Positions 43,818-44,819 of a stretch of 64,000 bases of DNA are shown piece by piece. The notes under the pieces were generated by a model that saw only the letters and a list, made by a program, of their open reading frames with translations, had not been told where the DNA came from and made no database searches. A program made the position numbers and the translations under genes. The stretch's first letter is position 1. Each line of letters opens with the position of its first letter. The DNA is from Escherichia coli (GTDB lineage Bacteria > Pseudomonadota > Gammaproteobacteria > Enterobacterales > Enterobacteriaceae), in the NCBI RefSeq assembly GCF_041248615.1, contig NZ_CP158426.1. The stretch is one strand, 5' to 3'.

Positions 43818-44819
43818 ATGAGTAAAGTTGGTATTAATGGTTTTGGTCGTATCGGTCGACTGGTGTTGCGTCGATTACTTGAAGTCAAAAGCAACATAGA
43901 CATTGTTGCTATTAATGATCTCACTTCCCCAAAAATTCTCGCCTACCTGTTGAAACATGATTCAAACTACGGACCGTTCCCCTGGAGCGTTGATTTTACG
44001 GAAGATTCACTTATCGTTGATGGAAAAAGTATCGCGGTTTACGCCGAAAAAGAGGCTAAAAATATTCCGTGGAAAGCGAAAGGCGCAGAAATCATTGTCG
44101 AATGTACTGGCTTTTATACCTCCGCCGAGAAATCGCAGGCGCATCTTGATGCTGGTGCGAAGAAGGTGTTGATTTCCGCCCCTGTCGGTGAAATGAAAAC
44201 CATCGTTTATAACGTCAATGACGACACACTGGATGGCAACGACACCATTGTTTCCGTGGCGTCATGCACCACTAATTGTCTTGCACCGATGGCCAAAGCC
44301 TTGCACGACAGTTTCGGAATAGAAGTCGGCACGATGACGACCATTCATGCCTATACCGGCACTCAGTCACTGGTGGATGGCCCGCGTGGTAAAGATCTAC
44401 GCGCTTCACGTGCAGCGGCAGAAAATATCATTCCCCACACTACGGGGGCGGCAAAAGCCATTGGTCTGGTGATCCCAGAACTGAGCGGCAAACTGAAAGG
44501 TCATGCACAACGCGTACCCGTGAAAACCGGTTCGGTGACTGAACTGGTGTCTATTCTTGGAAAAAAAGTGACTGCCGAAGAGGTGAACAACGCGCTTAAA
44601 AACGCGACAAACAATAACGAGTCATTTGGTTATACCGATGAAGAAATAGTCTCTTCCGATATCATTGGCAGCCATTTCGGTTCGGTGTTTGATGCCACGC
44701 AAACCGAAATTACCGCCGTGGGCGATTTACAACTGGTGAAAACGGTCGCCTGGTACGATAACGAATATGGCTTCGTCACGCAGCTTATTCGCACCCTCGA
44801 AAAATTCGCTAAACTCTGA
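43818..44819 (+). CDS. gapC: Glyceraldehyde-3-phosphate dehydrogenase C, intact 333 aa
   Basis: ORF track; NAD-binding GxGxxG (INGFGRIGR) and catalytic SCTTNC motif; uninterrupted frame. Confidence 0.9.

Follow-up and report, generated by a model that had tools for sequence, protein, structure and literature searches.

Intact gapC in an Escherichia coli strain: the majority state of a probably functional second glyceraldehyde-3-phosphate dehydrogenase gene that is a pseudogene in K-12

The gene gapC is the second, 'Gram-positive-like' type I glyceraldehyde-3-phosphate dehydrogenase (GAPDH) gene of Escherichia coli and other Enterobacteriaceae. The window analysed here, a stretch of 64,000 nt of E. 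coli DNA, holds this gene as one open frame, and an earlier note on the same DNA, taking gapC of K-12 to be a frameshifted pseudogene, had proposed that this strain probably encodes a functional second GAPDH. The locus raises two questions: whether an intact gapC can be expected to yield a working enzyme, and whether its intact state is peculiar to this strain. The features on which the answers depend are as follows.

43818..44819, + strand: gapC coding sequence, from ATG through 333 codons to TGA (ORF list); type I NAD-dependent glyceraldehyde-3-phosphate dehydrogenase
43807..43811, + strand: Shine-Dalgarno sequence AGGAG, 6 nt 5' of the gapC ATG (read from the sequence)
43630..43817, no strand: divergent cybB–gapC intergenic region, presumed promoter region of both genes
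43839..43856, + strand: GFGRIG, Rossmann dinucleotide-binding motif, gapC codons 8–13
43932..43934, + strand: gapC codon 39, AAA (Lys); TAA (stop) in K-12 by pairwise alignment
44184..44186, + strand: gapC codon 123, GTC, a rare Val in place of the conserved Ala of the S-A-P-A segment
44265..44267, + strand: gapC codon 150, TGC, catalytic Cys, inside ASCTTNCL
44346..44348, + strand: gapC codon 177, CAT, catalytic His
44561..44567, + strand: A7 run of gapC, codons 248–250 (GGA AAA AAA); A6 in K-12, a −1 frameshift
44827..44850, no strand: GC-rich hairpin AGGCGGAGG-AAAAAA-CCTCCGCCT, between the convergent gapC and aldA

The frame is open from ATG to TGA, with 0 internal stops in 333 codons in the ORF list, and the motif reading agrees with the earlier note in finding the NAD-binding and catalytic Cys motifs intact. 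The gene order is trg (−), hokB/sokB, ydcA, RydC, cybB (−), gapC (+), aldA (−) and ydcF (−), so that gapC has cybB on one side and aldA, in convergent orientation, on the other, which is the position of its orthologue. This cybB–gapC–aldA setting is the E. coli gapC locus, with the same synteny in O157:H7, ST131, O104:H4 and NRG 857C. E. coli NRZ14408 (NZ_LT599825.1) matches a 16-kb part of the window (36000–52000) as a single segment at 100% identity, and gapC itself is 100% identical to the 'gap' coding sequence that RefSeq gives for WP_001590123.1 in NZ_LT599825.1 and in NZ_OW967178.1 (isolate 362), where the gene has the status intact.

The neighbourhood has some features of its own. The cybB ORF at 43099–43665 (−) has 188 aa when read from an upstream ATG, while the RefSeq start at 43629 gives 176 aa and leaves a real cybB–gapC intergenic region of 188 nt. 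Between trg and cybB, as in K-12, are the sok antitoxin RNA (42314–42465, +; Rfam, 113.8 bits), which is part of the hokB/sokB type I toxin–antitoxin locus, and the RydC sRNA (43025–43088, +; Rfam, 92.5 bits). Between ydcF and hrpA, flanked on either side by short hypothetical ORFs, is an IS256-like IS1414 transposase gene at 47809–49017 (+), coordinates that were mapped from positions 11810–13018 of the related locus. Most other genomes cover 92% of the 16-kb query and apparently do not have a stretch of about 1.3 kb, which is most likely the IS1414 element; in close relatives, IS150 is annotated under the match in place of IS1414.

The comparison with K-12 took the form of a pairwise alignment, as the earlier note had suggested, and the K-12 gene does not have the same open frame. 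In MG1655, gapC (b4493) is listed as a pseudogene, and PGAP describes the gene of K-12 EMG2 as 'frameshifted; internal stop'. Both genes occupy the orthologous locus with the same flanking genes and share 96% nucleotide identity (39 substitutions and one deletion in MG1655), but the K-12 pseudogene, formerly split into gapC_1/gapC_2 (b1417/b1416), differs by two lesions: AAA to TAA at codon 39, and an A7 run in codons 248–250 that is one A shorter. Neither lesion is present in the window. The earlier note was thus right about the pseudogene and its frameshift, but its account was incomplete, as the K-12 defect includes the nonsense codon as well.

Divergence from K-12 was also observed to be roughly twofold greater in gapC, at 4.0% of positions, than in trg, cybB, aldA and ydcF (1.4–2.1%) when the region 41318–47297 of the window is compared. 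Nearly all of the differences in gapC are synonymous. This excess could come from faster synonymous change, as in a gene that is weakly expressed, or from old recombinant allelic diversity.

Of 5426 complete E. coli genomes, 5417 gave a megablast match to gapC and 9 gave none; at least 80% of the gene was matched, at 90–100% identity, in 5409. Five of the matches fall on records labelled plasmid. To assess how frequent the lesions are, all 5417 complete E. coli genomes with gapC were queried for exact occurrences of short sequences. The K-12 41-mer with TAA at codon 39 is exact in 1153 of these genomes and its counterpart with the AAA of the window in 3428; genomes exact for neither version have other SNPs inside the 41-mer. 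For the A-run, the K-12 41-mer with A6 is exact in 1046 genomes and the query with the same flanks and A7 in 1566, and all of the non-exact rows among the matches listed span 42 nt, the length that corresponds to A7. The K-12 lesions are therefore found in about 19–21% of complete genomes and about 80% are without them, making intact gapC the majority state in E. coli and no peculiarity of the strain studied here. In keeping with this, intact gapC is annotated in sampled records of phylogroups B2 (NRG 857C, ST131 EC958), B1 (O104:H4) and E (O157:H7), among others. Espinosa-Urgel and Kolter reportedly described intact gapC in natural isolates in 1998.

The K-12 double lesion is also carried by wild isolates, from human stool in Brazil, chicken in Korea, an oil-palm endophyte in Malaysia and human faeces in Ecuador, in which gapC is annotated 'frameshifted; internal stop'; in one isolate, the gene has a further deletion. 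Its presence in wild isolates indicates that the double lesion is no laboratory artefact. As TAA is exact in 1153 and A6 in 1046 genomes, some genomes may carry the nonsense mutation alone. The loss of gapC in about 20% of E. coli genomes implies that the gene is dispensable in at least some niches.

The encoded protein belongs to the type I GAPDH family. Against TIGR01534 (type I GAPDH, EC 1.2.1.12), GapC scores 444.7 bits over the curated equivalog cut-off of 367.2 (E = 2e-133), with residues 3–325 covering the full 330-position model, and Pfam places PF00044 (Gp_dh_N) at residues 3–102 and PF02800 (Gp_dh_C) at residues 155–313. Matches of this kind put the ORF far beyond chance. The GxGxxG motif is present as GFGRIG at residues 8–13, with Asp34 as the acidic end of β-B, and the signature [ASV]-S-C-[NT]-T-x2-[LIM] as ASCTTNCL at 148–155, which includes Cys150. 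Furthermore, GapC has His177 and the phosphate-site residues Thr180, Thr182, Arg195, Thr209-Gly210 and Arg232. All of the key residues checked, Asp34, Cys150 and His177 included, are invariant in 120 close homologues. Asp34 indicates a predicted preference for NAD, and the Pro in 'VDGPRGKD' is one that we take, by our own motif assignment, to match the Pro188-equivalent NAD signature.

Two other GAPDH classes were tried and rejected. GapC scores 301.5 bits against a cut-off of 662 for the GapA-type (eukaryote-like) model PRK15425, and falls below the curated HMM cut-off for type II GAPDH. E. coli GapA (b1779), the housekeeping enzyme, shares with GapC the enzyme family, the fold, the catalytic Cys/His pair and the NAD-binding motif, but it is encoded at a different locus and has only 47.7% identity. 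Among the closest solved non-enterobacterial relatives are GapA/GapC-type GAPDHs with PDB entries 4QX6 and 3K73 (~410 bits, full length), presumably streptococcal and staphylococcal enzymes. Unlike E. coli GapC, streptococcal and staphylococcal GAPDHs of this type are the sole or main glycolytic GAPDH of their organisms.

The best match among solved structures is the PDB 7C5F series, 'EcGAPDH1', which is identical to GapC of the window at 329 of 333 residues. This enzyme (PDB 7C5F, 7C5H, 7C5P and 7C7K, plus mutants; UniProt P58072, O157:H7) is the product of the same gene at the same locus, with the same length and the same catalytic residues. The purified E. coli enzyme reduces NAD+ with D-glyceraldehyde-3-phosphate (G3P), with a KM of 0.73 mM (PMC8615399). 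C150A abolishes this activity and H177A lowers it about 8000-fold, and complexes with the thioacyl intermediate and with 1,3-bisphosphoglycerate have been trapped crystallographically (PMC8615399). The protein of the window has I29, V123, N262 and N265 where 7C5F has V, A, Q and T; positions 29, 262 and 265 are variable among homologues, while V123 is rare. By analogy with this enzyme, GapC of the window very probably catalyses the NAD+-dependent phosphorylating oxidation of D-G3P, as seen in vitro for the protein with 329 of 333 residues in common. Cys150 would attack the substrate to give a thiohemiacetal and then a thioacyl intermediate, with His177 as the base; the hydride would pass to NAD+, and attack by phosphate would free 1,3-bisphosphoglycerate.

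The proposal that this gene codes for a probably functional second GAPDH draws support from the identity to the active 7C5F enzyme and also from selection. The Nei–Gojobori method gives a dN/dS of about 0.04, and dS values as high as 0.20, for a set of nine intact gapC alleles plus the K-12 allele, whose frameshift was repaired and codon 39 skipped. Such a value argues for strong purifying selection on gapC. Orthologues with 86–96% identity are found in E. albertii, Citrobacter, Trabulsiella, Klebsiella and Enterobacter.

With regard to expression, the Shine-Dalgarno sequence is unchanged in 8 of 8 aligned E. coli alleles, and 2–10 of the 188 positions of the cybB–gapC intergenic region differ from the window across seven other strains. 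A consensus scan of 43500–45000 gave no convincing sigma-70 promoter for gapC, with one weak site in or near the start of cybB, and its terminator-like matches inside the gapC ORF were chance-like. The hairpin at 44827–44850, which folds as RNA with −18.5 kcal/mol on the + strand and −24.3 kcal/mol on the − strand, was missed by the consensus scan because its T tail is short; it is probably a bidirectional terminator of gapC and aldA.

In K-12, ChIP-seq shows a peak of sigma-S RNA polymerase at the cybB–gapC intergenic region (PMC4447067), and the transcript of the gapC pseudogene is RpoS/CRP-dependent and increases under carbon limitation (PMC4512719, PMC2759082). In EPEC, which has an intact gapC, the gapC mRNA is CsrA-dependent (PMC6333774). 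A literature search for gapC in EPEC/EHEC secretion studies found nothing. From these data, gapC would be monocistronic, transcribed from the cybB–gapC intergenic region and ended at the hairpin shared with aldA. Its expression is probably low and condition-dependent, linked to sigma-S, carbon limitation and stationary phase, and this probable low, conditional expression suggests that GapC would be an auxiliary isozyme to GapA.

Taken together, the gapC of the window is, with good confidence, an intact ancestral allele that encodes a functional auxiliary NAD-dependent GAPDH. The open frame, family, catalytic residues, synteny, purifying selection and population frequency on which this explanation is based are observations, while enzyme activity and structure are taken by analogy from the literature on the 99%-identical protein. 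We infer that the expression pattern and physiological role outlined above, along with activity of the A123V allele, are most likely.

Residue 123 is the point at which the intactness of the frame might be deceptive. In 119 of 120 close homologues this position is occupied by Ala, in GapA by Ser and in the window by Val, and just 6 of 5414 complete E. coli genomes exactly match a 35-mer with GTC at this codon. The Ser-Ala-Pro segment just before this residue lines the nicotinamide-ribose pocket in GAPDH structures, and Val beside this NAD-contacting segment could cripple the enzyme; in a dispensable gene that is a pseudogene in about 20% of genomes, the allele would be at an early stage of loss of function with its frame still open. 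We regard this as improbable. The exchange of Ala for Val is a conservative one, Ser, Gly or Pro is tolerated at the position in other GAPDHs, and the catalytic and phosphate-site residues are all unchanged. Moreover, 517 public contigs encode exactly this protein, catalogued as 'type I glyceraldehyde-3-phosphate dehydrogenase [Escherichia coli]', which indicates that the variant is persisting and spreading by clonal descent. A conservative change in a clonally persistent allele would be expected to keep GapC active, as judged from sequence.

Even an active protein might be of no consequence if the gene were silent. That gapC is cryptic in nature and makes no physiological contribution would fit the scan, with its lack of a strong promoter consensus, and the loss of the gene, at no obvious cost, in a fifth of genomes. 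Nevertheless, a silent gene would not be compatible with the dN/dS of about 0.04 at dS values of up to 0.2, the gene is conserved in several enterobacterial genera, and transcripts have been detected in K-12 and EPEC, with the sigma-S polymerase peak lying upstream; silence is thus quite improbable. It is highly improbable that GapC is a paralogue with another specificity, namely an Epd-like erythrose-4-phosphate dehydrogenase, an ArsJ-coupled GAPDH or an NADP-dependent gluconeogenic GapB-like enzyme. GapC does give matches to those models, but they are sub-threshold, and those to the Epd and ArsJ models are far below the cut-offs: 277 bits for TIGR01532 and 278.6 bits for PRK13535 (Epd; cut-offs of 530.55 and 539), and 310 bits for NF033735 (ArsJ-associated GAPDH; cut-off of 450). 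The neighbours of gapC are cybB and aldA, and arsJ was not found nearby in the ORF list or the RefSeq neighbourhood. Asp34 also points to NAD, and the 99%-identical enzyme uses NAD+ and G3P.

A functional auxiliary GAPDH therefore remains the preferred reading. A bolder proposal, which we consider unlikely, is that A123V, found in 6 of 5414 genomes, alters NAD binding, kinetics or stability of GapC and that, more broadly, the intact/pseudogene polymorphism of gapC (~80%/20%, with the double lesion in wild isolates of several continents) would be due to selection that varies with niche and acts on a stress or environmental isozyme of GAPDH, not to neutral decay.

The finding of an intact gapC is correct but ordinary, as this is the common, annotated and characterised state of a known gene. 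A clinical qPCR study in which gapC serves as a species marker for E. coli cites UniProt P58072 (GapC, O157:H7) and Hidalgo et al. A review refers to Espinosa-Urgel and Kolter (1998) for the view that gapC is adaptive in aquatic environments (PMC1796617). With RefSeq, UniProt, PDB and the literature already covering intact gapC, the single observation matters little. Its wider meaning is that K-12 is unrepresentative of E. coli for this gene, with a second, probably active GAPDH in most strains, and the state of gapC bears on metabolic models, on inferences about gapA essentiality and on the use of K-12 as an annotation reference.
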